From positions 195,772 through 259,771 of IMG/VR virus record IMGVR_UViG_3300042923_000569: DNA of 64,000 bases; one strand, given 5' to 3'. Each line of letters opens with the position of its first letter. The first letter of the stretch is position 1. Position numbers and translations under genes: made by a program. Positions 474 through 47,332 of the stretch are shown here, piece by piece. Under the pieces are notes generated by a model. It was not told the DNA's origin. It made no database searches and worked only from the letters and a program-made list of their open reading frames with translations. Source of the stretch: a virus.

Positions 474-707
474 TTAATAATCCTCGCGTTTCCAAGAGTC
501 GTCGTACCAGGTAGACAACATTTCTTTTACTTGTTCAATTTCTTCGTCAGTTGTATCATCACTGAAAGCAGTCTGGTATTCACATACTGGACAGTACCAT
601 TCCATTCCTTCATACAACTTAGATTTCACTACTTCAATTGTGTCATTGACGAATAGCTCAACGTAGCTATCACCAGATTCACTTTTAATATGCATTGCAA
701 TAATCAC
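474..707 (-). CDS. hypothetical protein (77 aa, one CxxC pair)
   Basis: ORF track; 1-nt gap to neighbour. Confidence 0.5.
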   Translation of the reverse strand: MIIAMHIKSESGDSYVELFVNDTIEVVKSKLYEGMEWYCPVCEYQTAFSDDTTDEEIEQVKEMLSTWYDDSWKREDY

Positions 708-970
708 ACAATCACCAATTTTAGCTTTTTAGTTAGTACTGCTTCTTCTTCACCATCAACAAAAACTTCAATAGTAGAAGTACTTAGCCATAGACCTAAG
801 TCAATATTTTTACCTTCGTACTGCTTAATAAAATCTTCACCAAATACATCAGCACGAAGTTTTACGTTATAGAAATAAAGGTCAGACACACCATGTTCGT
901 CCCAATTTTCCCAAGATTCGATTAGTGAAAATTCAACACCAGAATCATCTTTTTCTGTTTTAATAGTCAT
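704..970 (-). CDS. hypothetical protein (88 aa)
   Basis: ORF track; 4-nt overlap with downstream gene. Confidence 0.5.
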   Translation of the reverse strand: MTIKTEKDDSGVEFSLIESWENWDEHGVSDLYFYNVKLRADVFGEDFIKQYEGKNIDLGLWLSTSTIEVFVDGEEEAVLTKKLKLVIV

Positions 971-971
971 A

Positions 972-1343
972 TTAATATTTCCTAATTACCTCAATCTTTG
1001 GATCATCATAACGACGACCACGATATTGAGAAGTTTCTTGATCTTCGTTCCATCGTTTTTCACAACATTTACATTCAATCACAAACCAGTAAGAATCCTG
1101 AGAACGATCATAGTTACCAGTATCAGACTTAGATTCAATGGTAATGTATTCATGAGTGCATTCTTCTTGAAAACTTAATTGTGCATCTAATGCTTTGGCT
1201 AGATTTTCTTGGAGCTTAAGAAACTCCTTTCGCTTCTCTGCAAATTCTGCACCAAGCTTATCAGCAGCCGTTTGATATTCCATAACGGCTTTTTTGGAAC
1301 TGAATTCTGTACCGTCAGCAGCTACATAAATTTTTTGTGTCAT
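972..1343 (-). CDS. hypothetical protein (123 aa, Cys-rich C-terminus)
   Basis: ORF track. Confidence 0.55.
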   Translation of the reverse strand: MTQKIYVAADGTEFSSKKAVMEYQTAADKLGAEFAEKRKEFLKLQENLAKALDAQLSFQEECTHEYITIESKSDTGNYDRSQDSYWFVIECKCCEKRWNEDQETSQYRGRRYDDPKIEVIRKY

Positions 1344-1531
1344 TTCCTTTTCCTTTTTAAGAATTCTTCTTTAATTAACATAGGAATTGTTATAGGCCAA
1401 AATAAACCCAAAATAGCCATTATAGCCATTCCAAAAACATTGCCCCAATCACGCCAGATGGTAATTCCAATAATGAATGTTAGAAAAATTCCTGCCAAAT
1501 ATATCATTGATATAGTACCTAGAATTTCCAT
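1340..1531 (-). CDS. small membrane protein (~63 aa)
   Basis: ORF 1340..1606 overlaps 1531..1716; an internal ATG at 1531 gives TGATG coupling; hydrophobic. Confidence 0.45.
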   Translation of the reverse strand: MEILGTISMIYLAGIFLTFIIGITIWRDWGNVFGMAIMAILGLFWPITIPMLIKEEFLKRKRK

Positions 1532-1716
1532 CATAATGAAAAGACTTCCATGATTAAAACTATAGGCCAGCATATTCCAGCCATAAGAGAAATAAGAGTT
1601 CCACAAATCATATTGGATATACCCACTGAATCTAAAGTAAGTTCAACAAATGTATATGAAAATGCAATGATTCCACACAAAATATAAATGAATATAAAAA
1701 TTGTTAGTACTGTCAT
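1531..1716 (-). CDS. small membrane protein (61 aa)
   Basis: ORF track; hydrophobic; ATGA overlap with upstream ORF. Confidence 0.45.
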   Translation of the reverse strand: MTVLTIFIFIYILCGIIAFSYTFVELTLDSVGISNMICGTLISLMAGICWPIVLIMEVFSL

Positions 1717-1949
1717 TTGTTTTCGCCTGTAATTTTTTCTTTAATTTTTACAAACCAGTATACAGGCCATAGAGCTGCAATCATAAATGCAAAACCCATC
1801 ATTAATAATCCAAATACAAGTACTAGTGGATGATCATCGTCACCGTTAATTCCCATTTCAGTAATAATATCACCGAATGTAACTACTGCCATTATTACAT
1901 AGAAAATACAGAAAATTCCAATCCAAGATAAAATTTCCATTATTCCCAT
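1713..1949 (-). CDS. small membrane protein (78 aa)
   Basis: ORF track; two hydrophobic segments. Confidence 0.5.
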   Translation of the reverse strand: MGIMEILSWIGIFCIFYVIMAVVTFGDIITEMGINGDDDHPLVLVFGLLMMGFAFMIAALWPVYWFVKIKEKITGENK

Positions 1950-2287
1950 CCTAAATGATAACGCCAGCCTTGTGAACCGAAAGAGTCATCAAGGTCACCA
2001 GCATTAAGAACATCGATCATAAATTCGATTTCACCAGATACCATATCACCATCAACTGGAGTTCCAGCGGCAATAGCGTCTAGTACTTCAGGCGTTAACG
2101 AAGAATAGTTTACAAATAGGTCTTCTTCTTCTGCACCTTCATAATCGTGATAATCATTATCGTACTGTACTGTTAAATCATAAATGGTTCGCAAATCACG
2201 AATAAAAGAATCACGGTCTTCTACATTTCTGAAGACGCCATTAATTTCAATTTCGTGTTGAAGACTACCGAAGTTACGTTCACTCAT
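1940..2287 (-). CDS. hypothetical protein (115 aa, acidic)
   Basis: ORF track. Confidence 0.55.
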   Translation of the reverse strand: MSERNFGSLQHEIEINGVFRNVEDRDSFIRDLRTIYDLTVQYDNDYHDYEGAEEEDLFVNYSSLTPEVLDAIAAGTPVDGDMVSGEIEFMIDVLNAGDLDDSFGSQGWRYHLGWE

Positions 2288-2547
2288 AGATATTTGTCCA
2301 TCAAAAAGTCGAATAATTCTTTACTATTTTTACCAACATACCAGTCAACTAGTTCGTTTTCTTCGTCTTCATCTTCTGGGTGTTCGAAAATTTCAACATG
2401 GAAATGTCCCTTAAAATCAACACCAATACCGAAGATAAGTTCACCACAAGTATTTTCTTCAATATCCTCTATCATAGAACAGATATAGTCGAATTGTTCT
2501 GATTCATTGGCATTAGTTGGAAATTTATATTCAGTTGTGTTTTTCAT
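2284..2547 (-). CDS. hypothetical protein (87 aa)
   Basis: ORF track; 4-nt overlap. Confidence 0.55.
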   Translation of the reverse strand: MKNTTEYKFPTNANESEQFDYICSMIEDIEENTCGELIFGIGVDFKGHFHVEIFEHPEDEDEENELVDWYVGKNSKELFDFLMDKYL

Positions 2548-2707
2548 TACTCTTTCCTAATACTAGTAAAATGATAATAACAAGAAATGGAGAAATGATA
2601 AAACTGATAATAGCCCATAGTAAAAATGAACGATTATTCTTTTCTGTAATACAGAACATCACGTAGTAAGTGATTAGTAGGATAATTACGTAAATTGCAG
2701 TTGCCAT
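2531..2707 (-). CDS. small membrane protein (~58 aa; below the ORF-track cutoff)
   Basis: hand translation MATAIYVIILLITYYVMFCITEKNNRSFLLWAIISFIISPFLVIIILLVLGKSNEKHN; TAATG coupling to the upstream gene. Confidence 0.35.
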   Translation of the reverse strand: MATAIYVIILLITYYVMFCITEKNNRSFLLWAIISFIISPFLVIIILLVLGKSNEKHN

Positions 2708-2970
2708 TATTCTTTACCTACTGAAACATGATGTAGTACTGCTACAGTTTTAAATTCTTCTTCAGAATTGCCATTCAGATCAACAATCTTAACTTTAAGA
2801 CCGTCAAGTGAATTATTTGCGTGGTACTTTTCCATTAGTGCTACATCATGGGTATCCGAAACAATATCAACTGCTTCACCAGTACGTTCAGCAATGAACT
2901 TAGCAACTTCAACTGCTAGGGTTGTTTTACCTGAATGTACTGTATCTGACGTAATATTAACTGTAATCAT
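2707..2970 (-). CDS. hypothetical protein (87 aa; SGKTT resembles but is not a canonical P-loop)
   Basis: ORF track. Confidence 0.5.
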   Translation of the reverse strand: MITVNITSDTVHSGKTTLAVEVAKFIAERTGEAVDIVSDTHDVALMEKYHANNSLDGLKVKIVDLNGNSEEEFKTVAVLHHVSVGKE

Positions 2971-3173
2971 TAATTATCCTCTAAATCTTGAATTTTTATA
3001 CCTTCGCTTAAAATTTGTTTGCGTGGGTATTTGTGTTGATAATACTTTAGACCATCATCGTGATCACGAAATGCACCTAGATTAGTACGACACATTTCAT
3101 AAACTGCACCATCTGAATCGTGGTCTACGATATCAGATTGTTCATAATAAAAAAGATAAACTAGCATATACAC
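2970..3173 (-). CDS. hypothetical protein (67 aa)
   Basis: ORF track; start preceded by the conserved TTTTAATTGAGAGG leader. Confidence 0.45.
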   Translation of the reverse strand: MYMLVYLFYYEQSDIVDHDSDGAVYEMCRTNLGAFRDHDDGLKYYQHKYPRKQILSEGIKIQDLEDN

Positions 3174-3209
3174 CTCTCAATTAAAATGGGGTACTTAGTA
3201 CCCCTAGTA

Positions 3210-3425
3210 TTACTCAGCAGGATTTCCAGCCGAAGTAATATAACTTACTTTAATAACATACTCTGGTGATGGATATTCACGCTCTAAATCAGCACGAATA
3301 CCACCAGAAACAGACGTCTTACCTACCCAATGAGAATCAGTATGGGTAACAATATCATGAAGACTGTAAGAACGGTTTTCTTCATTGTTACTTTTATAAA
3401 TGCTATATACTACATGAATTGCCAT
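3210..3425 (-). CDS. hypothetical protein (71 aa)
   Basis: ORF track. Confidence 0.45.
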   Translation of the reverse strand: MAIHVVYSIYKSNNEENRSYSLHDIVTHTDSHWVGKTSVSGGIRADLEREYPSPEYVIKVSYITSAGNPAE

Positions 3426-3434
3426 TTTGTTTCC

Positions 3435-4358
3435 TTAGAAATCGCCCGGATTGACTTGATAGACTTTTAGACCCAATAGCTTACGCCACATGTCAACAAC
3501 TTTGGTGCGATCATCAAATACTTTAACTACTTTATATTCAGTACTTACATGATTCATAAACAACTCATACTTAACAATATCATCAGGGCGGTTATCATCC
3601 GCAGCACGCATGTAGATATGGTCATAAGGAACACCGTATTTCTGCAACCACTTCTCAGTATCTTCTTTGCAAGTTTCATGGCGACCACTCATGATGATTA
3701 CCTTACGACCAAGATAGTTCTTTTCTGCCATAACAGAAAAGATAACTTCAGGATCTGGATCATCAAGTAGTACTTTGTTTTCTTCATATGGACCACGTTT
3801 ACCTTCCATATGAGCAAGAGTACCGTCAATATCTACAATGATTGCTTCTTCCAAGCCAGAATCATAAGTGAATTTTGGTAAGACACTGTACAAGTACTTT
3901 TCTGCCATACCATCAATAACTTCTTCAGGTACGGACTTTTCCCGCATTAAGTTACGTTCTTTACACTGCTTAACATAATCTTTAATAGCGAAGAATTCAT
4001 GTACGAAAGTTTTATCCTTCTTAAATTCAGTAAAGAAGTTTTGTTCTTTATAAGTGTAATTGTGTTCGCGTGCAAATTCTTTCCACTTATTACGTACTGC
4101 CGGATTTAAGTTGGTATCACCAACGATAATGTTCCAGTTATTCAAAGCTGCATGTTTAGCTGCACTGTACTGAGCGTCTTGCACGTACTGTTCATTGTCT
4201 TTGCGGAACTTATAGTTTTGGTGTGATCCAGCCATAGTCTGGCGAATGTCGTCTAAGTTTACGATTACCGTTTTAGAACGAGCACTTTTTACATGTTCTT
4301 TCGCCCAGGTCGTTTTACCGCAACCTGGTGGTCCTACTGTTACTGTCAATACTGGCAT
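3435..4358 (-). CDS. pseT: polynucleotide 5'-kinase / 3'-phosphatase (T4 PseT-like)
   Basis: Walker A GPPGCGKTTWA; phosphatase DxDGT motif (DIDGTLA); C-terminus ...VDMWRKLLGLKVYQVNPGDF closely resembles the T4 PNK C-terminus; the first ATG is M6 of the track ORF, whose own start is TTG. Confidence 0.9.
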   Translation of the reverse strand: MPVLTVTVGPPGCGKTTWAKEHVKSARSKTVIVNLDDIRQTMAGSHQNYKFRKDNEQYVQDAQYSAAKHAALNNWNIIVGDTNLNPAVRNKWKEFAREHNYTYKEQNFFTEFKKDKTFVHEFFAIKDYVKQCKERNLMREKSVPEEVIDGMAEKYLYSVLPKFTYDSGLEEAIIVDIDGTLAHMEGKRGPYEENKVLLDDPDPEVIFSVMAEKNYLGRKVIIMSGRHETCKEDTEKWLQKYGVPYDHIYMRAADDNRPDDIVKYELFMNHVSTEYKVVKVFDDRTKVVDMWRKLLGLKVYQVNPGDF

Positions 4359-4569
4359 GTTTTCCAATTCCAAATTTGTCAGAGAAATTTCTTAGTACTC
4401 GTTCTGATACACGAATACTCGCAGTGTCATTCCTGGAGCTATATTTTAAAGGTGTCCATGATAGACCATTTGCATCTAAAAACTTTAATGCACGAAAATA
4501 ATCTTTAAGTGTATTAAATTTAATTACAGTCATGTCCTGTTCAATGCTATGGCTTATTTCAACTTTCAT
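4315..4569 (-). CDS. hypothetical protein (84 aa)
   Basis: ORF track; 3' end overlaps the pseT start by ~44 nt in another frame. Confidence 0.4.
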   Translation of the reverse strand: MKVEISHSIEQDMTVIKFNTLKDYFRALKFLDANGLSWTPLKYSSRNDTASIRVSERVLRNFSDKFGIGKHASIDSNSRTTRLR

Positions 4570-4578
4570 GGAATTCTC

Positions 4579-4809
4579 CTAAATGATTATGTACTTGTCA
4601 CAGTATTTCATCGTTAGATTGAAGAATGCTCCTTCATCGAAATAAAATTCTTCATCAACGATAAAAGCTATGTCACCAATATTTTTTACGTATCCAAGCA
4701 TCTCATTTTTTTCAACGATGCTTAAAGTTTTAGCTGGAATAACAGAAAATTCATGTTCTTTATATAAGACTTTGACTGTTTGTATTGTTTCCAATTTACT
4801 CACGTGCAA
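4579..4809 (-). CDS. hypothetical protein (76 aa)
   Basis: ORF track. Confidence 0.45.
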   Translation of the reverse strand: MHVSKLETIQTVKVLYKEHEFSVIPAKTLSIVEKNEMLGYVKNIGDIAFIVDEEFYFDEGAFFNLTMKYCDKYIII

Positions 4810-5035
4810 ATCTTCCTATATCATAAATTTTAGGTTTTTTGTTTTTGGGCTTACGTTCCTTCTTATACATAGTACTGCTAACACCAAAAGTATTTTTAAG
4901 ACGCTTTGCAGACTTAACCACACCATTCCTTGAGCGGTCACTTTGCACAGCGTCTATCTCTTGTAGTATTCTTCTATGTTCTTCAGGAGTTCTTACGTCG
5001 CCCTTTTTTACTTTGTACTTAGGTTTAGCCATCAC
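4796..5035 (-). CDS. small basic protein (79 aa, Lys/Arg-rich)
   Basis: ORF track. Confidence 0.45.
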   Translation of the reverse strand: MMAKPKYKVKKGDVRTPEEHRRILQEIDAVQSDRSRNGVVKSAKRLKNTFGVSSTMYKKERKPKNKKPKIYDIGRFARE

Positions 5036-5062
5036 TACTCCTTGTTAGGCTATGTTACGAAC

Positions 5063-6223
5063 TTAAACTTCAAACTCCTTAAGAACGTCTTTCATGTACT
5101 TTAACATGATAGCTTTATAATCTACGGGCTTAGAATTATAAAGTGAGAACGCAATACCAGGCATTCCAAGTTCGTTAGGTAATACCTTCTGTACTTGAAT
5201 TGCATAATCTTTTCGTTCTAAATTTTTATTTTCATTGTAAAATGATTCAGATTCACTTACTAGCTTATTATAGCAGGAAAATACAAGCTGTTCCATTTTT
5301 TCGATCTTTTTCATTGCGTACAAATCTGTACTAAACATCTGCTTAAGATCATCTGATGCACCGGTAATCACTGCACCATATAAACGAGAATCAACATTAA
5401 TGCTGTCCTTTGTAAAGTGTAGAGCACTATACCAATCAGTCTTAACCTTACAAATACGACCATCTTTTAGAATGATAATATAACCTTCAATGTCATGCAT
5501 TTCACGTACTGCATCAATGCTTTCAATTAAAGTCTCTTTCATTGGGAAAGTACTATCAATATCACCGTGTTTAGCCGACACAGAACGCTTGTACAAGCCC
5601 GGAAATGCATCTTTAAGGCGTTCACCCACTAACATTTCACCGGTCTGACGATGGCGTACATTAAGCACAGTAAGGCCATCTTCCTGATACGGAAGAACAA
5701 TACGGTACTCAGGTGAGGTATATTCTAAATTTACAGTGAATCCTAGAATTTCTGCCTGATAGATTTCTTCGTAGAATTCTTTATCCTTGTGTAGCATTGC
5801 AGTACTGTTAATAGCATGGTCAGAATATAATGATGCCTGGGACTTAGTACGTACTTTATAATCTGCATCCATGAAGGTACTGATAATAGAGCCGTCAAGT
5901 TTATCCATTACTACTGCAATCTCAGAACTTAAAGTACTTTTATCAAACATAGTGAATGGGTTTTCATATGCATTGAAAAACTTCATTGGTGGTCTAGAAA
6001 CCAAACGAATAAAAGAACCTTTATCATTACCTTGAGGATCTACTTCAAACATTGAACCACGGCATTCTAAAGCATTAGGCTCTAGAAAGTCAGTATAGCT
6101 TGCAAGACGATATGAGAAAATACGGAATGTGCCACCGCCAGCAGAAGTGAAGTCTTTCCATGAGAAAGCATCGTTCTTTGCGGTTAAAGCCATCAGATCG
6201 TTAAAAATAGTTTCAGTGCTCAT
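5063..6223 (-). CDS. rnlA: RNA ligase 1 (T4 gp63/Rnl1-like)
   Basis: Motifs FRIFSY, ALECRG, EKFFN, ENPFTM and the central lysine region match T4 Rnl1. Confidence 0.9.
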   Translation of the reverse strand: MSTETIFNDLMALTAKNDAFSWKDFTSAGGGTFRIFSYRLASYTDFLEPNALECRGSMFEVDPQGNDKGSFIRLVSRPPMKFFNAYENPFTMFDKSTLSSEIAVVMDKLDGSIISTFMDADYKVRTKSQASLYSDHAINSTAMLHKDKEFYEEIYQAEILGFTVNLEYTSPEYRIVLPYQEDGLTVLNVRHRQTGEMLVGERLKDAFPGLYKRSVSAKHGDIDSTFPMKETLIESIDAVREMHDIEGYIIILKDGRICKVKTDWYSALHFTKDSINVDSRLYGAVITGASDDLKQMFSTDLYAMKKIEKMEQLVFSCYNKLVSESESFYNENKNLERKDYAIQVQKVLPNELGMPGIAFSLYNSKPVDYKAIMLKYMKDVLKEFEV

Positions 6224-6232
6224 TTTAAACCC

Positions 6233-6547
6233 TTATTTGGTTTCGTAATCATCATTTACAAATGAATCTAAATCATAATATAAATTATCTGCACTAATTT
6301 GTGCCAGTAGTTCAGTACTTTCTTTGATTTGATTAATATTACCGTCAGAATCTACAAGAAAAATATTATCAGCATCACACTTAATTTCTTGGCGATTTTC
6401 ACCATAAATCTTAATGCTGCGTCTAAGTGTATATTCTTTCTGTCCAGTTTTCTTCGTAACAATTGTTCCATCTTCTAAATCAGAAGCCTGGATAATAACC
6501 TTAAAGACACTTGGCATTGTTTTAAAATGTATCATTCTTATATCCAA
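6233..6547 (-). CDS. hypothetical protein (104 aa)
   Basis: ORF track; terminator hairpin immediately upstream. Confidence 0.55.
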   Translation of the reverse strand: MDIRMIHFKTMPSVFKVIIQASDLEDGTIVTKKTGQKEYTLRRSIKIYGENRQEIKCDADNIFLVDSDGNINQIKESTELLAQISADNLYYDLDSFVNDDYETK

Positions 6548-6577
6548 AAAAAGCCCCGATTAGACGGGGCATAATAA

Positions 6578-7318
6578 TTAATACAATTCAACCATTCCCA
6601 TCAAGACAGAATCATCTGGACGTGAATATTGTTGTTTCGCAATTTTGAAATAAAATGAATCGGCGTTTTCTAAACAGTATCGCTTCTTCAAACATCTCGT
6701 ATATGTTTGGTTATTAGGATGAACCCATTCGTAAATCTGAATTCCTTCATCATTATAACCAATTATTGATGTACGGTTTCCTTCATGACGGTTAAAGTTT
6801 TTACTCCTTTCAGTAAAGTACTTTACCTCGACGACTTCTGGCTCGTCATAAACATAAGGCATTTCAGTTAAACGAAAATAATAATAAGTCTCATCTTCAG
6901 AATATCCTAATAGAACTGTTTCAGTACTGCTAATACCATAGTGCTGTAAGCTCTTTGACTCATTATCTTTTATATCTGCAAGTACCTCTCTTAGTACTTG
7001 TACCGGTTCTCCATTAGGATCAGAAACTCCAGCAACCCTACGTTCAATAATAGGGTCAGTATATCTACGTTCTTCCTGAACTACACCGTTCATATATAGA
7101 CCAACGAAATCATCCTTATATGTTTTTACTGAGTACTGAGTACTGTTTAAAGTACTATATACATCAGCCAACATATTAGCCTGTCCACACTGTACACCAT
7201 CAACAGCTCCAGCAGTTGCGTATTCTGCCATTACTGATGTTAAGGTTTGAAAGTTGGACATGTTTAGTTCGTTAGCCATTTCTGTTGCAAATTTAATACG
7301 ATCAATCATCGCACACAC
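6578..7318 (-). CDS. hypothetical protein (246 aa)
   Basis: ORF track; AAGGAG-type RBS; sits between the NTase-like gene and rnlA. Confidence 0.6.
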   Translation of the reverse strand: MCAMIDRIKFATEMANELNMSNFQTLTSVMAEYATAGAVDGVQCGQANMLADVYSTLNSTQYSVKTYKDDFVGLYMNGVVQEERRYTDPIIERRVAGVSDPNGEPVQVLREVLADIKDNESKSLQHYGISSTETVLLGYSEDETYYYFRLTEMPYVYDEPEVVEVKYFTERSKNFNRHEGNRTSIIGYNDEGIQIYEWVHPNNQTYTRCLKKRYCLENADSFYFKIAKQQYSRPDDSVLMGMVELY

Positions 7319-7381
7319 TCCTTGTGTTTAAAATCTGCTGTCTCTCCCTTAAAAAAATCCCCGAATTAACGGGGAAAGATA

Positions 7382-8476
7382 TTAATCTAATTCTTTAATA
7401 GCAAGTAGTTTAATATTACCTGAAATTGTAAGTCCTTGATGAGTCATATCAAATTTACAATCATCTTCAACTTCAATAACTGCTGCATAATAGGCATTAC
7501 TAGTTCTATAGTAGTAAGCTGATGGAACGTCATCAATACTTGGATAAACAGTAACATCTTTTCTGAAGTAACTAGATTGATCTAACGTAAATGTTTGTTC
7601 GTGATTATTGTTATCAACATATACACCATTAATCTTACGAATGTACTTAAAGAAAATACGCTGATTAGCATATGGATTTCCTAGTACTGTAAAGAATAAC
7701 ATTTCAATCGTTGGGTTGGTAGCAGTTGGCTTATCCAGATATTCATGTACTGTTTCGATCATAGAAAAAGCATCTTCCATTGTAAAAGGTACTGAATGGT
7801 CGAAGAATTCTGATACATCAATACCATAGAAACCACTTAGCTGATCTTCCAATTCTTCCCATGAAGTAATGTTCAGATCACTAATAGCCATTCCGATCTT
7901 GAACATTTCTTTCTTAGAAATCTTATAACCACGCTCTAAGTATTTTGAAACACGTAGGGAACTCATGATAGGATAACGAGTACCTTTATTAAAAGTTAGT
8001 CTACGTTCTGCAATGTCAGTTACAAACTTATCGTGCAAAACGAATTGCGAAGTACTGAAATCATATGCAGCCATATTGATATGGAAATCATAACTTTTAA
8101 ATATATCAGTCACATCTTGAAAGAAATCAAAATGGATTAATTGAAGTACTAAATCGTTATGAGTGAAGGTTATACTTCTGGAAGTGTGATTTTGACAGGT
8201 AAATTCAAAAGTACTCATATCCAAAAAATCTTCTTCAGACAATGGGAAAGGATCTTCCCCGTCTTCCAAATCACCCTCACTGTTATAAGCATTACGAATG
8301 AAGGTGATAATATCTTTTTTGGATCTGAAATAAATGTCATAGTCATTTACTTCTGCACCAGAAAAGATTGATGTAATTGCACCACCAGCAATAATTGCGT
8401 TTGTAGTGGTAAGCATACTAATTGCATCTTCTCCTAGATTGCGAAGAAGTGTGTTTTTGTGTCGTCCTAGATTCAT
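7382..8476 (-). CDS. putative nucleotidyltransferase (Pol-beta superfamily signature)
   Basis: N-terminal AIIAGGAITSIFSGAEVNDYDIYF fits hGG-x12-DxD-hhh with the spacing of class-II CCA-adding and poly(A) polymerase-type NTases; rest of protein unrecognised. Confidence 0.45.
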   Translation of the reverse strand: MNLGRHKNTLLRNLGEDAISMLTTTNAIIAGGAITSIFSGAEVNDYDIYFRSKKDIITFIRNAYNSEGDLEDGEDPFPLSEEDFLDMSTFEFTCQNHTSRSITFTHNDLVLQLIHFDFFQDVTDIFKSYDFHINMAAYDFSTSQFVLHDKFVTDIAERRLTFNKGTRYPIMSSLRVSKYLERGYKISKKEMFKIGMAISDLNITSWEELEDQLSGFYGIDVSEFFDHSVPFTMEDAFSMIETVHEYLDKPTATNPTIEMLFFTVLGNPYANQRIFFKYIRKINGVYVDNNNHEQTFTLDQSSYFRKDVTVYPSIDDVPSAYYYRTSNAYYAAVIEVEDDCKFDMTHQGLTISGNIKLLAIKELD

Positions 8477-8664
8477 TTACTAAGTTCTTTCCATTGTTTA
8501 ATTATGTCATATATAAAAAATCCTGTTCCTAGTGAACTAATACTAATAGATACACCAGCAAGTATATGAGCTATTTCTAGCTCACCAGTACTTGTATATA
8601 GAAACCACGTACAAGCCCATAACAAGATTAAAGATAGGGCTTGTACAACTAAAACCGTCTTCAT
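8473..8664 (-). CDS. small membrane protein (63 aa)
   Basis: ORF track; hydrophobic; overlaps both neighbours. Confidence 0.4.
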   Translation of the reverse strand: MKTVLVVQALSLILLWACTWFLYTSTGELEIAHILAGVSISISSLGTGFFIYDIIKQWKELSK

Positions 8665-9524
8665 TATTGAGCCACAGCCTTACCATAATCAGGTGCATAT
8701 TCTTGAACAATCTGCACAAATTTACGGATGGTACGGACTTCAGTTAGAAGCATGAATTTTAGTACTTCGTATACTTCACGTTGATTGAAGTTGTTTTTGG
8801 CATCCTTCATCATATCTAGGAAGTACATTTCAACTTCATCACAATACTCAACAAGCTTAGCTGGTTTAAATACACCAACAGCAGTACTGAGATTATGAAT
8901 ACGGTCAATTAGTTTTACAACTGAACAGACTTCACAATTAGAAACCTGTTGGAAATATCCATAATATTGTTCACTACCCTGATCCTTAAATTTAGATAGA
9001 ATACGGCTGTACTTAACAACATCAGGGAACATTTCGTGCAATTCATTTTCCCATTCAGGATAATCTTCAATGGTATCATGAATGATAATACCCATATACA
9101 CATCGTAAGGCTTAAGAAGAGAGCTATGTAAACTAAGTGCCAAGCTCAACATTTCAAGTTGATGTGAAAATTCTGGATTACCATCTTTACGTTCATTGCA
9201 ATGTACTTGCTCTGCAAAAGTGATTGCACGACGAACATCAAAGTACTTTGGTTCTGCCAAAGTAAGACCTTCGATAATACCAAGTACTTTAGTGCGTAGT
9301 TTGTTATATTCTGTCTTTTCCATACGATCTACCTCTTCGTCGGTTTGATTCAACATATAAGCTGGCATTGGTTTTCCGTTATAAATCACATACTCACCAG
9401 TTTCTAGCTTACGTTGTGCAATGTTCGCAGATGCCTTTTTAAGACGACGATGAAGCCGGTCGCTTAACTCATCTGCTGTTAGAATTTTATCGTCCACGTT
9501 TACCTTTGATACGTTCTTCGCCAC
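8664..9524 (-). CDS. HD-domain phosphohydrolase, RelA/SpoT-type (small alarmone hydrolase-like)
   Basis: ...KDGNPEFSHQLEM...GIIIHDTIEDYPEW parallels the SpoT hydrolase pattern R.sGePy..HpL.V...(L)LHDviEDt. Confidence 0.7.
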   Translation of the reverse strand: MAKNVSKVNVDDKILTADELSDRLHRRLKKASANIAQRKLETGEYVIYNGKPMPAYMLNQTDEEVDRMEKTEYNKLRTKVLGIIEGLTLAEPKYFDVRRAITFAEQVHCNERKDGNPEFSHQLEMLSLALSLHSSLLKPYDVYMGIIIHDTIEDYPEWENELHEMFPDVVKYSRILSKFKDQGSEQYYGYFQQVSNCEVCSVVKLIDRIHNLSTAVGVFKPAKLVEYCDEVEMYFLDMMKDAKNNFNQREVYEVLKFMLLTEVRTIRKFVQIVQEYAPDYGKAVAQ

Positions 9525-9681
9525 GTTTAACCAAATCAGTAATGAGTACTTTTAACTCATTAGCAGCTTCGGTAATACTTGATAGATGATCTTTAAAGGT
9601 CATTTGTTCAAGTTCTTTTCGTGTTTTCTTACGCGAATTAGTTTTTTTCTTTTTCATAAGCTCACAACATGTCATTAACAT
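9487..9681 (-). CDS. small basic protein (~64 aa from the internal ATG)
   Basis: track ORF 9487..9693 starts at TTG; first ATG at 9681; weak RBS; overlaps both neighbours. Confidence 0.3.
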   Translation of the reverse strand: MLMTCCELMKKKKTNSRKKTRKELEQMTFKDHLSSITEAANELKVLITDLVKRGEERIKGKRGR

Positions 9682-10252: not shown

Positions 10253-10547
10253 CCTTCTCTTGTATTGTCAAGAGAAATAGCTGAATTTCTTCGATTTTTA
10301 TTTCGTTTGTGCATAAAAACGCCATTAATTCAGGAAGTACATAAAACAACTTAGCGAACGAACTAATTTCAGATTGATTAAACGAGAATCCCATTGGTAT
10401 AACACTGGAATTCCATACACCTTCGATTCTGTGCGATACTACTGCCATTATCACCCGATCACCGTACTCAACCGAAACATGCCGATAACCTGTCTGCTCA
10501 TTCTCTTCCCAAAACATGTGGCTCGTTTTAAAAACCATACTTCTCAC
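10239..10547 (-). CDS. hypothetical protein (102 aa)
   Basis: ORF track. Confidence 0.5.
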   Translation of the reverse strand: MRSMVFKTSHMFWEENEQTGYRHVSVEYGDRVIMAVVSHRIEGVWNSSVIPMGFSFNQSEISSFAKLFYVLPELMAFLCTNEIKIEEIQLFLLTIQEKVDSI

Positions 10548-11073
10548 CTAGTAGTTGTTTTAAGAGTTCAAAGTACGTCCTGTTCTTTGCGTGAGAACCC
10601 GGTGGCATCAAGCTACTGAATTCAGCAAAGTCATTACGTAAGATAGTATCACGAACGTTAGTACTTGAATAGGGATTATTTTCTCTAGGACCGGCACTAA
10701 CTGTTTGAACTGTATCGAAATTGTACAATTCTCCGTTATATTTGTGAAGCAGATCACCAAATTTACCAGACCTGTCGGACCCGCATAGCATGACAATATT
10801 ACTATAAAGTGGATCTAATTCTTCCAAAACACCAAATAACGTACTCGCATGATGTGGTTGAAAATACTTCATAATCCAGGGATAGTACTCTTCAATCATA
10901 TCAATTTTAAAGTCATACGGTAATTGCTCTGAGTTAGTTACGTACAACTTAATTTCAGAATTTGGAATCGTTTGTTGTAGTATAAGTGCTTGTTGAAACA
11001 TTTTTCCATGTCCCATATGAACCGGACTAAACTTACCATACATCATAATACATGTCTTTGGTGCAATGTTCAT
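10528..11073 (-). CDS. NMN/NaMN adenylyltransferase-like nucleotidyltransferase (NadD/NMNAT family)
   Basis: HxGH-type motif GKFSPVHMGH near the N-terminus and ISSTxIR-type motif YSSTNVRDTIL near the C-terminus. Confidence 0.7.
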   Translation of the reverse strand: MNIAPKTCIMMYGKFSPVHMGHGKMFQQALILQQTIPNSEIKLYVTNSEQLPYDFKIDMIEEYYPWIMKYFQPHHASTLFGVLEELDPLYSNIVMLCGSDRSGKFGDLLHKYNGELYNFDTVQTVSAGPRENNPYSSTNVRDTILRNDFAEFSSLMPPGSHAKNRTYFELLKQLLGEKYGF

Positions 11074-11078
11074 TGTTA

Positions 11079-11627
11079 TTACTCTAAGTCAATCCAAGGT
11101 TGCACTACAAAACCTATACTATGTAGTACTTCTAGTTTCTCTTTAGTAATATTGTTATCATAGATAACTAACATACTTGGAAATGGTGCACCTGATTTTT
11201 TATGAGAACCATCTTCTCTCCATGAAGGAAGACTACGGTTATCAAACTTCAGACGACCTTTAACAAAACAAATAGCTTCCGCTGAACCTTGAATATAATT
11301 GTGAAAGTATCTTGTATCGGTTCTTGCTGGTGGCAATGCAACAATAGTAGTTCCATTTACACGGTGTTCTTCATCAAACTTTTTAAACCATTTACTGATT
11401 TCTCTTCCGTAAGGAGGATTACACCAGACAGTTTCACCTTCCCATGAATGTGCAAGACCATCCGTTTCAGGTGTATAGTACTTCTCACATTTAGCAGTTT
11501 CATCCATTGCAGCAGGATCTAAAGTAAAGTTCCATACTGCGTTCAACCTCTGATAAAAATCATCAGGAGTATCCCACGTATTTGATGCTGAACTAAAATG
11601 AACTGATTTATTATTTTCTTCTTCCAT
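11079..11627 (-). CDS. phage DNA N6-adenine methyltransferase (Dam-like, PF05869-type)
   Basis: WDTPDDFY...FTLDPAA...ETDGL...WCNPPYGR: DPAA and NPPY catalytic motifs in the order typical of the phage Dam family. Confidence 0.8.
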   Translation of the reverse strand: MEEENNKSVHFSSASNTWDTPDDFYQRLNAVWNFTLDPAAMDETAKCEKYYTPETDGLAHSWEGETVWCNPPYGREISKWFKKFDEEHRVNGTTIVALPPARTDTRYFHNYIQGSAEAICFVKGRLKFDNRSLPSWREDGSHKKSGAPFPSMLVIYDNNITKEKLEVLHSIGFVVQPWIDLE

Positions 11628-18265: not shown

Positions 18266-18812
18266 TACTCAAACCCATTTCATCTAGTAATTTATCAATT
18301 GCTTTGATATGATGTTCCTCCAAATCTCCCATAGAAACTTGCAAAGAAACAATTTCTAAATCTTTTATTTCATTTAGTAACTTACATGATTCCTCGTAAA
18401 AGAATTCTTCAGGTAAATCGTATCGTGTTAAGTTCTGAAAATACATAGCTTCATCGTGAACAAAAGGATACTCAATCCTTAACTCATCAAAGTATGCTAC
18501 TTGGCACGTCTTATTTAATGGACTATAATTTATCCATCTTGGATTAACTGAGTTACCGGAATTAATTTCCTGATAGTGCAACATACCAGCACAGTTAGTA
18601 CTTTTAAAACTTTCCGACCTGTCCGTGCAAATCCTGACAGAAACATTGTGATCTTTTACAATTACAATTTCTACATCATCGCATTTAGATACAATCTTGT
18701 GACTATGATTATTCTCTTGAAAGTACTTGTCAAGCTTAATAAGAGAATCAATAATAAACTTACCTGAATCTAGGAGTTCTTTATATTCTTCACGCGTTAA
18801 ATTAATTTTCAT
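18258..18812 (-). CDS. tandem YFQ-motif paralog (184 aa)
   Basis: YPFVHDEAMYFQNLTRYDLPEEFF. Confidence 0.55.
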   Translation of the reverse strand: MKINLTREEYKELLDSGKFIIDSLIKLDKYFQENNHSHKIVSKCDDVEIVIVKDHNVSVRICTDRSESFKSTNCAGMLHYQEINSGNSVNPRWINYSPLNKTCQVAYFDELRIEYPFVHDEAMYFQNLTRYDLPEEFFYEESCKLLNEIKDLEIVSLQVSMGDLEEHHIKAIDKLLDEMGLSNA

Positions 18813-19255
18813 TCTAATATTTCCAAATCATAACGGTACTGGTCAGCATGAATACCACGTAAGTAATCTTCTGCTACATCCATATGCATTTTAGTACAAT
18901 CCAAAATCTTAATCTTTGATGTTTCAAAGAAACAGTACGAAGGTACTACATCTGGTTCATACTCATTGATGTAACGTATGTAATCATAATCAACTTCATC
19001 GTTGAGTAGTTGGTAATATAATTTCTTCCAGCCAGAATCAGAACCCTGATCTTTTGCTTCATATTCTTCGCCTAATTCAATTAAGCAACGATGAATATAG
19101 ATACTATCTAATGTTAAATCTCGAAGATGCCTTCGATCTTGTTTGAGTTTAAGTAAAGCACAATCAACGGCACTCATCATTCCACCCAAGTGTAATCCAC
19201 CAAATGGAACATAAAACTCTTCAATTTTAACAGTACTGGCATGAAATACAATCAT
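18809..19255 (-). CDS. hypothetical protein in the paralog array (148 aa)
   Basis: ORF track; weak motif similarity only. Confidence 0.5.
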   Translation of the reverse strand: MIVFHASTVKIEEFYVPFGGLHLGGMMSAVDCALLKLKQDRRHLRDLTLDSIYIHRCLIELGEEYEAKDQGSDSGWKKLYYQLLNDEVDYDYIRYINEYEPDVVPSYCFFETSKIKILDCTKMHMDVAEDYLRGIHADQYRYDLEILE

Positions 19256-19839
19256 ATGATAATGAACCCGTCTAGTACATCTAAGTTAAATGTGGATAAA
19301 TCGGAAACTTCAATAATAATTTCATTATCATTTATTCGTTTGTAAAATTCAAAACAGAAATCAATCTCTTTTTGGAACTGTTCATATTCTACAATATTCT
19401 GTACAGTCATTTGCTGGAAAAACCATTCTTCAGGTCGTTCTAATAAAATATCTTCAACATCAGCATATAAATCAACTAATACCCGATTAGTTTTATAATC
19501 AATACTATCACCAACAACAATAGAAAACTCCCACCCGCCTTTGTAACAAAAATAATCATTGCACACAATGCTGTCATAAAATTCAATATTGTAGTCTTCG
19601 GTTCTACGTATGGAAAACATTGCTCCCTCGTCAGGTGCTGCATCTGATTCATATACATAAAACCCGTCACCCCTCATACAAACATCTAAACCTAAACCTT
19701 TGTAATTGTAAAACATGAAGTTATAGTACTGTCCATTTTCAATGGATTCTTTGTACTTTTCTTCCATCATCTTATAAAGATTATAAACGTACATCAATTT
19801 ATTAATTGTATTAGTATTATAGAAATCATATCTGTTCAT
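19252..19839 (-). CDS. tandem YFQ-motif paralog (195 aa)
   Basis: ERPEEWFFQQMTVQNIVEYEQF. Confidence 0.55.
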   Translation of the reverse strand: MNRYDFYNTNTINKLMYVYNLYKMMEEKYKESIENGQYYNFMFYNYKGLGLDVCMRGDGFYVYESDAAPDEGAMFSIRRTEDYNIEFYDSIVCNDYFCYKGGWEFSIVVGDSIDYKTNRVLVDLYADVEDILLERPEEWFFQQMTVQNIVEYEQFQKEIDFCFEFYKRINDNEIIIEVSDLSTFNLDVLDGFIII

Positions 19840-20345
19840 TACAAAGAACCTAAGTGTGTCTCTTTAAGACGGTTAATGTGTGTACGTATTGCATTCAGAG
19901 TAAGTGGACTTATCATTCTATGAATATACCCATTGAAACCTTTGGTATAAAGAATACAACAAATATAGTACTCATACAGTTCTTTATCTGTCATAACAGT
20001 ACTTAACTGAAAGTCCAAGTCTTCTTTAAACTCTGATACATTAATAAGTTCTCTGCTAACGTATCGATTACACTTTTTATCAATACCATTAAAAAACCAA
20101 AACGTATCATACAAATCTGTTAAACCTGGATTAAACATTAAAAAAGTTTCAAAAATATCGGTTCTTGAATCTCTTATCCTGATAGTACTTTTATTAAAAA
20201 AATATTTGTTCTTTAGTGTATTATAATTATTTGTATAAAGTCCAGAAGACTTGGTAAGTACATCAAGTAATTCGGTATGAATATCTTTTATATCCATAAT
20301 CTTCTGAACGTAGAACTCAGCACGTTCGAATATTCTTAAACTCAT
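19839..20345 (-). CDS. hypothetical protein in the paralog array (168 aa)
   Basis: ORF track. Confidence 0.5.
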   Translation of the reverse strand: MSLRIFERAEFYVQKIMDIKDIHTELLDVLTKSSGLYTNNYNTLKNKYFFNKSTIRIRDSRTDIFETFLMFNPGLTDLYDTFWFFNGIDKKCNRYVSRELINVSEFKEDLDFQLSTVMTDKELYEYYICCILYTKGFNGYIHRMISPLTLNAIRTHINRLKETHLGSL

Positions 20346-20953
20346 AATTTCTTCAAACTCCGAAAAGTACCAATTACTAATTTCATACCATCAGTTATTG
20401 ATTTAACAAGCTTAGGATCTGAGATAAGATTTTGTATAGGTTCTTCACACTCAGATTCTTTAGCACTGTTTAAATGAATCCCCGTCAGATAATCAGTACT
20501 GTAATAGCTCATTACCTTATCATAGAATGTTTCTGGTGCTAAATCCAGAACAGACAAATACTGAAAGTACTGTTCTTCCTGGATAGGATAGTTCATCTGA
20601 TGATCATATTTTTCAGCACCAGCAGAACCCACCAAACTAATAACTGACGAAGATGCTCTCCGACCACATTCAATCTGAATGTTCAAATCATCAGTATAAA
20701 CAATCGTATTTTCAGTAATGTAATCGTAATATAAGTAAATCATATACACAAATGAATCATTAATCAGTTTGAATGAGACTGAATCAGGAAACACGCTAAA
20801 CCGAAATTCTACTCCACTCTTGGTTCCACCAAAGTTATAAGGTTTATCTGGAATGAAATTTTTATCGTTAATTGCAATACGAAGACCTTCCAACTCAGTA
20901 ATTACTTCCGAAAAACTTTCGGTAATATCCTGTACTAACTCTAACCGTAACAT
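20342..20953 (-). CDS. tandem YFQ-motif paralog (203 aa)
   Basis: NYPIQEEQYFQYLSVLDLAPETFY. Confidence 0.55.
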   Translation of the reverse strand: MLRLELVQDITESFSEVITELEGLRIAINDKNFIPDKPYNFGGTKSGVEFRFSVFPDSVSFKLINDSFVYMIYLYYDYITENTIVYTDDLNIQIECGRRASSSVISLVGSAGAEKYDHQMNYPIQEEQYFQYLSVLDLAPETFYDKVMSYYSTDYLTGIHLNSAKESECEEPIQNLISDPKLVKSITDGMKLVIGTFRSLKKL

Positions 20954-26166: not shown

Positions 26167-27087
26167 TTAAAAATCGAGAAGTTCTTCAGGTTCGGCGTTT
26201 TTCAGTGCCAGCCTCTGATCTACCAGGTTCATCGCCATTTGCCAGAGTGAGCTATTCAACACGATGTTTTTATCAATGTTGGTGATAGCACGGCTGGTGC
26301 GTTTGCGTCCTGTTTCTGGATTGAAGCCTGACTGCCCGCCTTGCATCAAATGCTGTTGAACCGTATTAAAAGTACTATACAGGGAATTATCGTATTTGTC
26401 AGTACTATTTAAGCCTTTATGTGATAAAAGTGAACGCGGCTGGAATACGGCGTTTGTGAAATCACCGTTAAGCGGCATACCTTCTTTTAACACATACGCG
26501 GCAATGGCGAATGAATCACGTTCTGAAATGTTCAGATCAATCTGTTTCATTTCTTCTTTATAACGTTCAATATCATCAAAGTCTTTTACTACAGTGTAAA
26601 CACCTTCGATAACATCATCCATAACGCCTTTGCCTTTCGTGCCATTACCTTTGTGATAGATTTTAGTATTGTGTGACATATCACCCATTACTAAACCATT
26701 AGCACAAACAAAGCGAAATTGTCCCGCCATTAACTGGTAAGCACTTGTACCATCATTGGCATTCACCAAAATGATTTCGTTTGCTTCACCTTCAACCTTA
26801 CCAGGCTGACGGAAACGGATCATATGTTTAGTATAATCACGTTTGGTAGTATCGCGTACTTTTGCCTGTATCGCGTACATAGGAAAATAGTTTTCTTGTG
26901 CCAGGCGATCAACAATGTCAATCGTTGCCACTGGTGCAAATCTTGATGACCGGCTTTCGTGCCCTTCAACTGCGAAGATTGAAGGAACCACTTCTAACAG
27001 TTCAGTACGGTTCAATGGACGGTTATCTTTAAGGGCAAAGCCGTTGATTCCTTGATACATTTTGTTCATGGGATAGCCTCTAAGCAT
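26167..27087 (-). CDS. DUF932-like protein (phage/plasmid-like protein family, PF06067-type)
   Basis: remembered family hallmarks SIFAxEGHESRS and DGTSAYQLMAGQFRFVCANGLV; identification from memory only. Confidence 0.5.
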   Translation of the reverse strand: MLRGYPMNKMYQGINGFALKDNRPLNRTELLEVVPSIFAVEGHESRSSRFAPVATIDIVDRLAQENYFPMYAIQAKVRDTTKRDYTKHMIRFRQPGKVEGEANEIILVNANDGTSAYQLMAGQFRFVCANGLVMGDMSHNTKIYHKGNGTKGKGVMDDVIEGVYTVVKDFDDIERYKEEMKQIDLNISERDSFAIAAYVLKEGMPLNGDFTNAVFQPRSLLSHKGLNSTDKYDNSLYSTFNTVQQHLMQGGQSGFNPETGRKRTSRAITNIDKNIVLNSSLWQMAMNLVDQRLALKNAEPEELLDF

Positions 27088-31564: not shown

Positions 31565-32419
31565 TTACTTGAGACTTACAAACGGTACTGACGAACCTGG
31601 TACAAACTGAGTAGGTAACACACCGTTCCATTTGTCAACCGCTGCAAGCTGTACAAGTTGCGGATTGTTGTTTAGTGCGTCTGCTTTCGCCTTAATCGCT
31701 GCTGCATCAGCTTCACCTTGTAGGCGAGTTGCCTGTGCGTCTGCTTTAGCTTGTGCAACTTTTGCATCGGCGGTGGCTTGTGCGTTAGTTACCTGGATCT
31801 GTGCGGTAACTTTCGATTCTTCCCACTGCTGCTGGCGTTTCGTTACGGCAATCTCTGCCTGCATACGTTCTTCAATCGACTTTTCATACGCTGGACTGAA
31901 TGACAAGTTTTCGATCTGGACGCTTTCAATTAGTACCGGATAGTTTTGCATAGCACCTTTAACCGCTAGGTTAAGATTGGTAACTAGCTTTTGACGATCC
32001 TGTACTGCTGTAATAGCATTGAATTGTCCGAAAACGTTTTCAAGTGCTTGCGGTACTTGACGATCAATAACACGTGCAACAAAGTTATCGATACTACCAA
32101 ATTGGCTATACAGTTCACCAACTTTGCCCGGTGGAATAGAATACGAAACTGAAATATTCATATCTGCCGGTTGCTGGTCACGCGAATATGCCTGAGTTTT
32201 TGGATAAGATTTACTCTGACCAGAAACTTTAACTTCTACTACTGAATCAACAAATGGCTTTTTCCAGTGGAAGCCAGGATCGGCAATGCCAGTTAATTTA
32301 CCATTAGTAAGAATAACGCCGCGATCTTGCTGGTCAACAGTATAGAACGAACCACCAGCAATCATCGCACCTACTAGTAGTACGAATACTACAAGACCAA
32401 TACCAAAGTACTTACCCAT
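31565..32419 (-). CDS. SPFH/band-7 (prohibitin/HflC-like) membrane protein
   Basis: N-terminal TM helix, then GVILTNGKL...PGFHWKKPF... SPFH core and a C-terminal Ala/Gln-rich coiled coil. Confidence 0.8.
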   Translation of the reverse strand: MGKYFGIGLVVFVLLVGAMIAGGSFYTVDQQDRGVILTNGKLTGIADPGFHWKKPFVDSVVEVKVSGQSKSYPKTQAYSRDQQPADMNISVSYSIPPGKVGELYSQFGSIDNFVARVIDRQVPQALENVFGQFNAITAVQDRQKLVTNLNLAVKGAMQNYPVLIESVQIENLSFSPAYEKSIEERMQAEIAVTKRQQQWEESKVTAQIQVTNAQATADAKVAQAKADAQATRLQGEADAAAIKAKADALNNNPQLVQLAAVDKWNGVLPTQFVPGSSVPFVSLK

Positions 32420-46170: not shown

Positions 46171-46180
46171 GGAGATTGAA

Positions 46181-47332
46181 ATGTTACCATTTCCAATTAT
46201 AAGTAATTTAAGACAACAGAGTATCTATAAGATACAAAAGTTTGTTGCTGGTTCATCGCACGTAGCAATATTAGGAACGAATGGACAGTTATTCACTAGA
46301 GGTGATAATACCTATGGACAATTAGGGGATACTTCTTATACTACCAACTATCAGGGCTGGCAATTAAGTTTATCAGACGTTGCTGGTGTATATGGTGATC
46401 GTTCACAGAATACGGTTGCCATTAAGAAAGATGGTACTGTGTGGGTATGTGGTAGATTTTGGACTGCTACACAGTTCGGTTTTACATCTACAACAGGTGC
46501 ACATTCATGGACTGAAATTACTTCGTACTTACCATTCAGTACTAATACTATTAAGGATATACAGGTTGGTTATCAGATGAGTGCATTTGTGCTTAATGAT
46601 GGTAGTGTATATTTTTGTGGTACGAATACGAATGGACAATTCGGTAATAACAATACTACTAACTTAACGAGTTATACCAAATCCCTAGCAACGGATGTAC
46701 AGAAGTTATATATACAGCATCCTCTTTGGCAGGGACAAAACGTTATATCATATATAGACAGTACTGGTAAGCCTTATGCCTGTGGTTATAACGGTACTAA
46801 GCAGGTATCTAGTAGTTCAACTATATCATCGTACAGTACATTCCAGTTATTATCGAGTGCAGTATATACTAGTGCAGCGATTGCTGGTACTACTAGTTGG
46901 TACATAAGAAGTAACGGCTCTGGTGATTATTGCGGGTCGGCCTCTGTATTACAGAATACAAACAGTGGTATATTGAATATGTATTCTGCTACAGGTAACG
47001 GTGCTACACAATTAGGAGAAATACAGTTAGCATCATTTGCAATTGTATATGGTTATAAAACTACTAATACGTTTTGGGCTAAGACTTACTATTCTGGTGG
47101 TGGGTCAGAACTACCACTAATGAATAATGTATCGAACAGGGCTAACTGGTTACAGCAAAGTACTATGCCGGTGAGTGCAGGTGTATATAGTGGAATGGCT
47201 ATGGGTAATTATAATAATGGATTTATATTATTCTTAGGTTCAGACCAGCAAGAAATATTTGGTGTTGGATTAATGAGTTCAAATAATGCAAGTACTGCAT
47301 TTGAGAAGTTAAGTATTCCAGAATTTAAATAA
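46181..47332 (+). CDS. RCC1-repeat beta-propeller protein (383 aa)
   Basis: classic RCC1 unit GDNTYGQLGDTS and GTNTNGQFGNNNTT; N-terminus MLPFPIISN. Confidence 0.6.
   Translation: MLPFPIISNLRQQSIYKIQKFVAGSSHVAILGTNGQLFTRGDNTYGQLGDTSYTTNYQGWQLSLSDVAGVYGDRSQNTVAIKKDGTVWVCGRFWTATQFGFTSTTGAHSWTEITSYLPFSTNTIKDIQVGYQMSAFVLNDGSVYFCGTNTNGQFGNNNTTNLTSYTKSLATDVQKLYIQHPLWQGQNVISYIDSTGKPYACGYNGTKQVSSSSTISSYSTFQLLSSAVYTSAAIAGTTSWYIRSNGSGDYCGSASVLQNTNSGILNMYSATGNGATQLGEIQLASFAIVYGYKTTNTFWAKTYYSGGGSELPLMNNVSNRANWLQQSTMPVSAGVYSGMAMGNYNNGFILFLGSDQQEIFGVGLMSSNNASTAFEKLSIPEFK

Follow-up and report, generated by a model that had tools for sequence, protein, structure and literature searches.

In bacteriophage T4, PseT and RnlA heal and seal the tRNA anticodon-loop breaks inflicted by PrrC/RloC-type nucleases. 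Phages are also known to encode small alarmone hydrolases (SAHs); those of PVP-SE1 and SSU5 neutralize all tested toxSAS toxins, and SAHs restore tRNA that has been pyrophosphorylated by toxSAS enzymes. Gad2 is an anti-defense protein directed at Gabija and was predicted earlier to be a nucleotidyltransferase (NTase). Its knockout renders Bacillus phage SPbetaL7 sensitive to Gabija; the activity has been shown only for this gene and a Brevibacillus prophage homologue, and as of February 2026 the mechanism was still given as unknown. A survey of jumbo phages counts "HD-alarmone" phosphodiesterases, RNA ligases, polynucleotide 5'-kinase/3'-phosphatase (Pnk), and CCA-type NTases as counter-defense equipment. 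Here, we analyzed positions 3435 to 9524 of a 64,000-nt stretch of the virus record IMGVR_UViG_3300042923_000569 (the window, to whose positions coordinates refer unless another locus is named). The stretch stems from a jumbo phage resembling Cronobacter phage GAP32 and Pectobacterium phage CBB (GAP32/CBB-like, Mimasvirus-like) and encodes at these positions Pnk, a T4 RnlA-type RNA ligase 1 (Rnl1), a 364-aa NTase, an SAH, and a protein referred to as orf246. The original prediction joined these genes into one module, broader than the T4 pair, that may mend both anticodon-loop and 3'-CCA-end damage to tRNA. The analysis does not support this module: the CCA-adding features are missing, the NTase is by homology a Gad2-family protein, and the genes are separable. 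The region probably holds several independent counter-defense genes rather than one integrated tRNA repair machine, a reading built on the identities of the genes, their conserved catalytic residues, the protein folds, and synteny combined with patterns of presence/absence, from which we infer all activities and targets.

The nucleotidyltransferase and the Gad2 family

Homology searches place the 364-aa protein in the Gad2 family. All 77 clusters of its homologues carry PF26128 (named Gad2), and the gene annotated as Gad2 in SPbetaL7 matches it in both tblastn (E=1e-43) and BLASTP (E=5e-50, residues 6 to 284) comparisons. At E<=1e-3, the family amounts to 6,682 representatives clustered at 50% identity. 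The protein had been described as a Pol-beta-type NTase with a GG-x12-DxD signature, and this description is borne out (G31 G32 ... D45 Y D47). The signature is no chance motif, since G31, G32, D45, D47, and D130 are invariant in 59 homologues, and the nearest folds are those of class II CCA-adding, A-adding, and poly(A) polymerase enzymes. With SPbetaL7 Gad2, the protein shares a homologous NTase core (residues 6 to 284) and the same GG...DxD...D residues, and both are phage borne and rapidly diverging. However, the overall identity is 31 to 38%, the insertion at residues 66 to 89 and the C-terminal domain differ, and the host of the window phage is Gram negative; the anti-Gabija role of the 364-aa member is assigned by homology. 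The protein is 58% identical to its CBB counterpart, which makes it the most diverged of the block (neighbors, 72 to 90%), a pattern typical of arms-race genes. It would be an accessory anti-Gabija gene, present in only a part of the clade of Rak2-like jumbo phages, and its chemistry is likely a template-independent nucleotide transfer to a nucleic acid 3' end or to a small molecule. Scans with NCBIfam, PADLOC, and Pfam yielded nothing useful for this protein or for orf246; the Pfam copy used did not contain PF26128, as a true Gad2 was also unmatched there. PDB sequence searches with the 364-aa protein and its family profile returned nothing meaningful, and a literature search on "PF26128" found nothing.

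Class II tRNA nucleotidyltransferases and bacterial poly(A) polymerase (PF01743; PDB 1miv, 3h37, 3wfo, 4wby, and 3aql) have a head and neck fold with motif A (GG...DxD), which we also found in the 364-aa protein. Beyond this core the two differ. A hidden Markov model (HMM) search of the NTP_transf_2/PolyA_pol type, which the original prediction had proposed as a check, left PF01743 unmatched at E<=0.1, whereas E. coli Cca matches this model at 3.7e-19; the family of the phage protein is PF26128. To map motif positions, we aligned the family profile with the sequence of E. coli Cca alone in hhalign; this alignment is weak (E=0.11) and serves for motif positions only. In this alignment, family positions 121 to 189 fall onto Cca residues 84 to 156, the position of the motif B RRD is occupied by S-[FY]-D, and that of the motif D EDxxR by [YF]-P-x-x-S (P in 100% and S in 93% of the 59 family sequences). 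Neither the motif B arginines nor the Glu-Asp/Arg template was found in any of the 59. Residues 270 to 364 are beta rich and poorly conserved, at the place where class II enzymes have a helical tRNA-binding body and tail, and many homologues of 238 to 260 aa are devoid of this region altogether. Because RRD, EDxxR, the helical body/tail, and the PF01743 match are all missing, the protein has a class II-like catalytic core but is, by the defining features, no CCA-adding enzyme. Its active site would resemble that of class II tRNA NTases without the CCA-specifying template. This class II tRNA nucleotidyltransferase/poly(A) polymerase fold narrows the Gad2 chemistry to be tested.

Phage genes annotated as "tRNA nucleotidyltransferase" in KASIA, 382E49-1, and TR-TP1 (tblastn E=7e-10 to 4e-5) were considered as a sequence bridge to Cca and rejected, as they do not match PF01743 either. 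At positions 18754 to 20582, the IMG/VR locus L097 encodes a genuine Cca, matching E. coli Cca at E=1e-96, next to an RlaP-type NTase; the Gad2 homologue of this locus lies ~8 kb away. One phage can thus encode Gad2 together with a true CCA-adding enzyme.

The alarmone hydrolase, the RNA repair pair, and orf246

The HD protein is a single hydrolase domain of the RelA/SpoT type (RSH) without a synthetase domain. Among PDB sequences, it best matches SAHs, SpoT, and Rel (7p1y, 1.7e-5; 7qps, 6.3e-5; 6s2t, 3.2e-4), with 6yvc and 6z3n also retrieved (these two and 6s2t lie between 3e-4 and 7e-4). It carries the HDTIED motif, and 41 homologues share its R..H, HD, ED, and DRxHN motifs without variation (H108, R112, H121, H149, D150, E153, D154, K204, D207, R208, and N211 in the 286-aa numbering), all of which agrees with the RelA/SpoT-type HD hydrolase assigned beforehand. 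In the HD/RelA_SpoT model search that had been suggested, the match to HD_4 (PF13328; 3.7e-4, 20.7 bits) stays below the Pfam gathering threshold of 27.2, and several close homologues carry a precomputed PF13328 match.

The 286 aa given earlier for this protein correspond to an overextended open reading frame (ORF). Alignments with the 80-odd homologues (203 to 247 aa) begin at M68, a codon served by a GAGG ribosome-binding site of its own, so that SAH spans positions 8664 to 9323 and 219 aa. The N-terminal extension is shared by only one near-identical metagenomic sequence, and the small upstream ORF of CBB and GAP32 corresponds to positions 9487 to 9657, not to the extension. A 163-nt spacer (positions 9324 to 9486) separates the conserved start of SAH from this small ORF, a homologue of CBB gp076, unlike in CBB, where the upstream small ORF overlaps the annotated SAH start. 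As the spacer contains no stop codon in the frame of SAH, it gives rise to the spurious 286-aa ORF.

Phage PbcSpo (PVP-SE1) and PaSpo (SSU5), as well as bacterial SAHs (ATfaRel; PDB 7p1y and 6yvc), are likewise single-domain RSH hydrolases with HDxxED and DRxHN motifs, and the first two are phage borne too. Toxin neutralization is a property of these known examples, whereas the SAH studied here belongs to a distinct subfamily; tblastn with it at E<=1e-3 did not reach PVP-SE1 and SSU5. This subfamily occurs in 36 phage records, mostly Rak2-like, all of which are jumbo phages of >330 kb except for one 47-kb Klebsiella record. SAH and a small membrane protein are conserved across the clade, and the latter also follows SAH in K64-1, GAP32, and CBB. 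SAH would hydrolyze the 3'-pyrophosphate on (p)ppGpp/(pp)pApp or on tRNA CCA ends, an action that would blunt toxSAS/CapRel-type defenses or the stringent response. That enzymes of this class can strip 3' pyrophosphate from toxSAS-damaged tRNA, another element of the original prediction, is correct and already published.

Pnk and Rnl1 are the pseT/rnlA-type pair that they had been taken for. The 312-aa Pnk ORF matches PF25109 (HAD_PNKP; 1.1e-46, 158.9 bits versus a cutoff of 27.6), AAA_33 (2.3e-19, 70.5 bits versus a cutoff of 27), and phrog_505 (7.5e-101). Its P-loop kinase motif (GPPGCGKT at residue 14) and HAD phosphatase motif (DIDGT at residue 181) are intact, and it is 81 to 83% identical to Pnk of CBB and GAP32. 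The likely start is the ATG at position 4358, since homologues begin at M6. Rnl1 (386-aa ORF) matches TIGR02308 (4.5e-90, 302.5 bits versus a cutoff of 242.25), PF09511 (3.6e-16), and, in its C-terminal domain, PF20819 (9.5e-22); KLDG at 108, EGY at 246, and KVKTD at 259 are all present. As in the T4 pathway, both enzymes are encoded, no catalytic motif is lacking, and Rnl1 retains its C-terminal domain; by analogy, their presumed targets are PrrC/RloC-type anticodon nucleases, the breaks of which they would heal and seal. They differ from the T4 pair in that the genes are ~0.7 kb apart and have three small conserved ORFs between them. This Rnl1-Pnk module is kept across the whole Rak2-like clade, small intervening ORFs included, among others in K64-1 and Munch, and the arrangement is already annotated in GAP32, CBB, K64-1, and Munch.

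The original prediction also listed an unknown 246-aa protein in the block. The gene is present, but the protein really starts at the ATG at position 7309 and is 243 aa long. It has a restriction-endonuclease-like alpha/beta core. D115, D142, and R149 do not vary among its homologues, and most of these have E152; a (D/E)xK triad cannot be clearly assigned from sequence alone. It is a core gene of the clade.

Coupling of the genes and rival readings

The NTase and HD genes had been compared to the two halves of a bacterial CCA-adding enzyme. An NTase and an HD hydrolase are indeed encoded close together here, as they are joined in E. coli Cca. However, the HD domain of SAH is of the RSH type (HD_4), whereas that of Cca is PF01966, and hhalign of the SAH profile versus Cca was insignificant (probability 1.3%). 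The phage genes are separated by that of the membrane protein and are uncoupled in evolution. The gene order in K64-1 and Munch is likewise orf174, Dam, NMNAT-like, orf102, orf196, SAH, orf246, Rnl1, and Pnk, except that Gad2 is missing at that site. We examined 80 IMG/VR Gad2 loci with 10-kb flanks, 8 of them Rak2-like and 72 outside the clade, the latter grouping into 34 clusters at 60% identity. At the Rak2-like loci, SAH, orf246, Rnl1, and Pnk are all present. Iterated HMM searches of the 72 others found SAH within 10 kb in none; over the same distance, 3 loci had an RNA ligase, 5 a Pnk-like kinase, 2 RlaP, and 1 Cca. No NTase-HD fusions were found among the 77 Gad2 clusters, 87 SAH clusters, and the top 150 of the 6,682 representatives (223 to 447 aa). 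The proposed split pair is therefore not supported.

These data bear directly on an integrated pathway, in which Rnl1 and Pnk would mend anticodon loops, SAH would strip the pyrophosphate from CCA ends, and the NTase, constituting a split Cca together with the HD protein, would rebuild CCA. Proximity of the genes aside, such a pathway is very unlikely. It is at odds with the replacement of RRD and EDxxR in all 59 family members, with the lack of a helical body/tail and of a PF01743 match, with a beta-rich C terminus that short homologues dispense with, with the RSH-type rather than Cca-type HD, and with the separate occurrence of SAH and Gad2 and the lack of fusions. Moreover, the Gad2 locus L097 carries a genuine Cca as well, and the validated function of the family is anti-Gabija. 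We consider it highly improbable that both enzymes are housekeeping proteins, the NTase acting as a CCA-adding or maturation enzyme for phage tRNAs and SAH only degrading (p)ppGpp, with neither involved in counter-defense. SAH does retain all (p)ppGpp-hydrolase motifs, 8 of the 80 IMG/VR Gad2 loci have tRNA genes within 10 kb, and in Escherichia phage 4MG (L010) a 474-aa Gad2-like gene (7500 to 8924) comes directly after a 25-tRNA array (686 to 7300). However, no tRNA genes were found in the 64-kb window, the CCA-specifying motifs are missing, and the knockout of Gad2 in SPbetaL7 has a specific Gabija-sensitivity phenotype. A general link between Gad2 and tRNA arrays, raised by the 4MG case, was rejected because most Gad2 loci have no tRNA genes nearby. 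Fourteen tRNA genes lie within 10 kb of the Gad2 homologue at locus L096.

A different role for Gad2, which we deem unlikely, would be at DNA ends: Gad2 enzymes would tail or mask phage DNA 3' ends in conjunction with a phage DNA ligase and defeat the block that Gabija imposes on end joining/circularization, and the closeness to RNA repair genes in the window phage would be incidental. An ATP-dependent DNA ligase is encoded within ~2.2 kb of Gad2 in 13 of the 72 loci outside the clade (at least 5 of the 34 Gad2 clusters), directly adjacent to it in L056, L076, and L100, and at 9.1 kb in a 14th locus; phage J2-1, L005, L018, and L019 likewise have a ligase close to Gad2. This recurrence agrees with recent evidence for an action of Gabija at DNA ends; the system has been reported to prevent circularization. 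The argument is nevertheless one of guilt by association, with a ligase count that has no background control for phage early regions. The nearest structural relatives of Gad2 all act on RNA 3' ends, there is no DNA ligase near the Gad2 gene in the 64-kb window, and the GAP32 ligase is ~10 kb away. The IMG/VR loci with a ligase near Gad2 are L056, L076, L100, L030, L037 to L041, L050, L055, L068, L077, and L079; further ligase genes near Gad2 are located at 4483 to 5826 in L015, 5815 to 6777 in L005, 3391 to 4491 in L018, and 2875 to 3771 in L019. They occur in several unrelated arrangements and on either strand, and ATP-dependent DNA ligase is the most recurrent close neighbor, again with no background control.

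Several observations weigh against a set of independent genes. SAH, the 63-aa membrane protein, and Gad2 have overlapping stop/start codons, so the three are probably cotranslated here, and in CBB no terminator intervenes between Gad2 and orf246. Locus L019, from an unrelated phage (ENA contig NODE_87, 51.6 kb), encodes an Rnl2-type ligase (PF09414) and a P-loop kinase (AAA_33/KTI12) at positions 4547 to 6383, two genes upstream of Gad2, and is a second, independent case of Gad2 near RNA repair genes. Rnl and Pnk lie within ~6 kb of Gad2 in L038 and L045, and an RlaP NTase is adjacent to Gad2 in L028. Gad2 may have a role at nucleic acid ends that overlaps with repair. One such role, quite unlikely in our view, would have Gad2 enzymes descend from class II tRNA NTases, having lost the CCA template, and tail or cap 3' ends. 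SAH, the membrane protein, and Gad2 beside Rnl1/Pnk would then form a coregulated end-repair island, in which the NTase acts on tRNA or RNA ends damaged by OLD/Toprim-type nucleases; the GajA relatives P2 Old and PARIS AriB, which are of this type, cut tRNA. If true, this reading would explain how Gad2 works and link the evasion of Gabija to RNA repair. We favor independent counter-defense genes. Each gene is an added member of a known family, and phage SAHs and Gad2 are both published counter-defense families. The evidence does not support a new, broader system against tRNA damage, and what remains is mostly ordinary.

Layout of the region and its surroundings

Positions 3435 to 9524 are ~77 to 79% identical in nucleotide sequence to Mimasvirus-type jumbo phages, with GAP32, CBB, and Erwinia, Serratia, and Yersinia phages among the matching relatives. 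An equal gene order is annotated in CBB (gp077 to gp087) and GAP32 (GAP32_074 to 084), and it is also found in the annotation of BF-like phages. The region (Table 1) appears to be part of an accessory, early-type gene region. The genes had been described as one co-oriented block. All named ORFs do lie on the minus strand, but so do those of some 40 kb, since this strand holds every sizeable ORF from window position 1 to ~41.6 kb; co-orientation is therefore uninformative on function. Nor is the block an uninterrupted operon, because terminator-like hairpins are found directly 3' of the NTase gene and of the orf246 gene, splitting Gad2, orf246, and Rnl1-Pnk into units. The hairpin at 6570 to 6553 has an equivalent in CBB, and the one at 7375 to 7358 is not at the corresponding position in that phage. 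The small ORFs of 84, 76, and 79 aa are kept in CBB and GAP32, with the 84-aa ORF also in K64-1 and Munch; PHROG scans of the small ORFs gave matches only to families without an assigned function.

Table 1. Features at positions 3435 to 9524 of the window, in order of position
Feature	Position	Strand	Remarks
Pnk	3435..4358	-	Polynucleotide 5'-kinase/3'-phosphatase, PseT-like; mechanical ORF to 4373
Three small conserved ORFs (84, 76, and 79 aa)	4315..5035	-	Between Rnl1 and Pnk; phrog_14730, phrog_26893, phrog_15306
Rnl1	5063..6223	-	T4 RnlA-type RNA ligase 1 including the C-terminal domain
104-aa conserved ORF	6233..6547	-	phrog_30478, 1.9e-32
Intrinsic-terminator-like hairpin and T7 run	6553..6570	-	Directly 3' of the 243-aa gene
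243-aa protein (orf246)	6578..7309	-	PD-(D/E)xK (restriction-endonuclease-like) fold; core gene of Rak2-like jumbo phages
Intrinsic-terminator-like hairpin and T7 run	7358..7375	-	Directly 3' of the Gad2-like gene
Gad2-family Pol-beta nucleotidyltransferase, 364 aa	7382..8476	-	Class II tRNA-NTase-like head and neck; variable beta-rich C-terminal domain
63-aa predicted two-helix membrane protein	8473..8664	-	phrog_28070, 3.3e-18; start/stop codons overlap SAH and Gad2
SAH (RelA/SpoT-type small alarmone hydrolase), 219 aa	8664..9323	-	
Doubtful N-terminal extension of the SAH ORF	9324..9524	-	67 codons from GTG 9524; probably noncoding spacer

Just upstream and on the same strand are an NMN-adenylyltransferase/cytidylyltransferase-like gene (10528 to 11073; PF01467, 1.9e-3; phrog_3041, 3e-36) and a Dam-type DNA adenine methyltransferase gene (11079 to 11627; PF05869, 3.4e-27). 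In a survey of Erwinia phages, gad2 and the NAD-salvage system NARP2 are reported to co-occur perfectly. Further genes of the window encode a DUF932 protein, an SPFH/Band-7 protein, and an HNH endonuclease (sites at 26167 to 27087, 31565 to 32419, and 52076 to 53005, all on the minus strand). Two Kelch/RCC1-repeat proteins are encoded on the opposite (plus) strand at positions 44149 to 47332.

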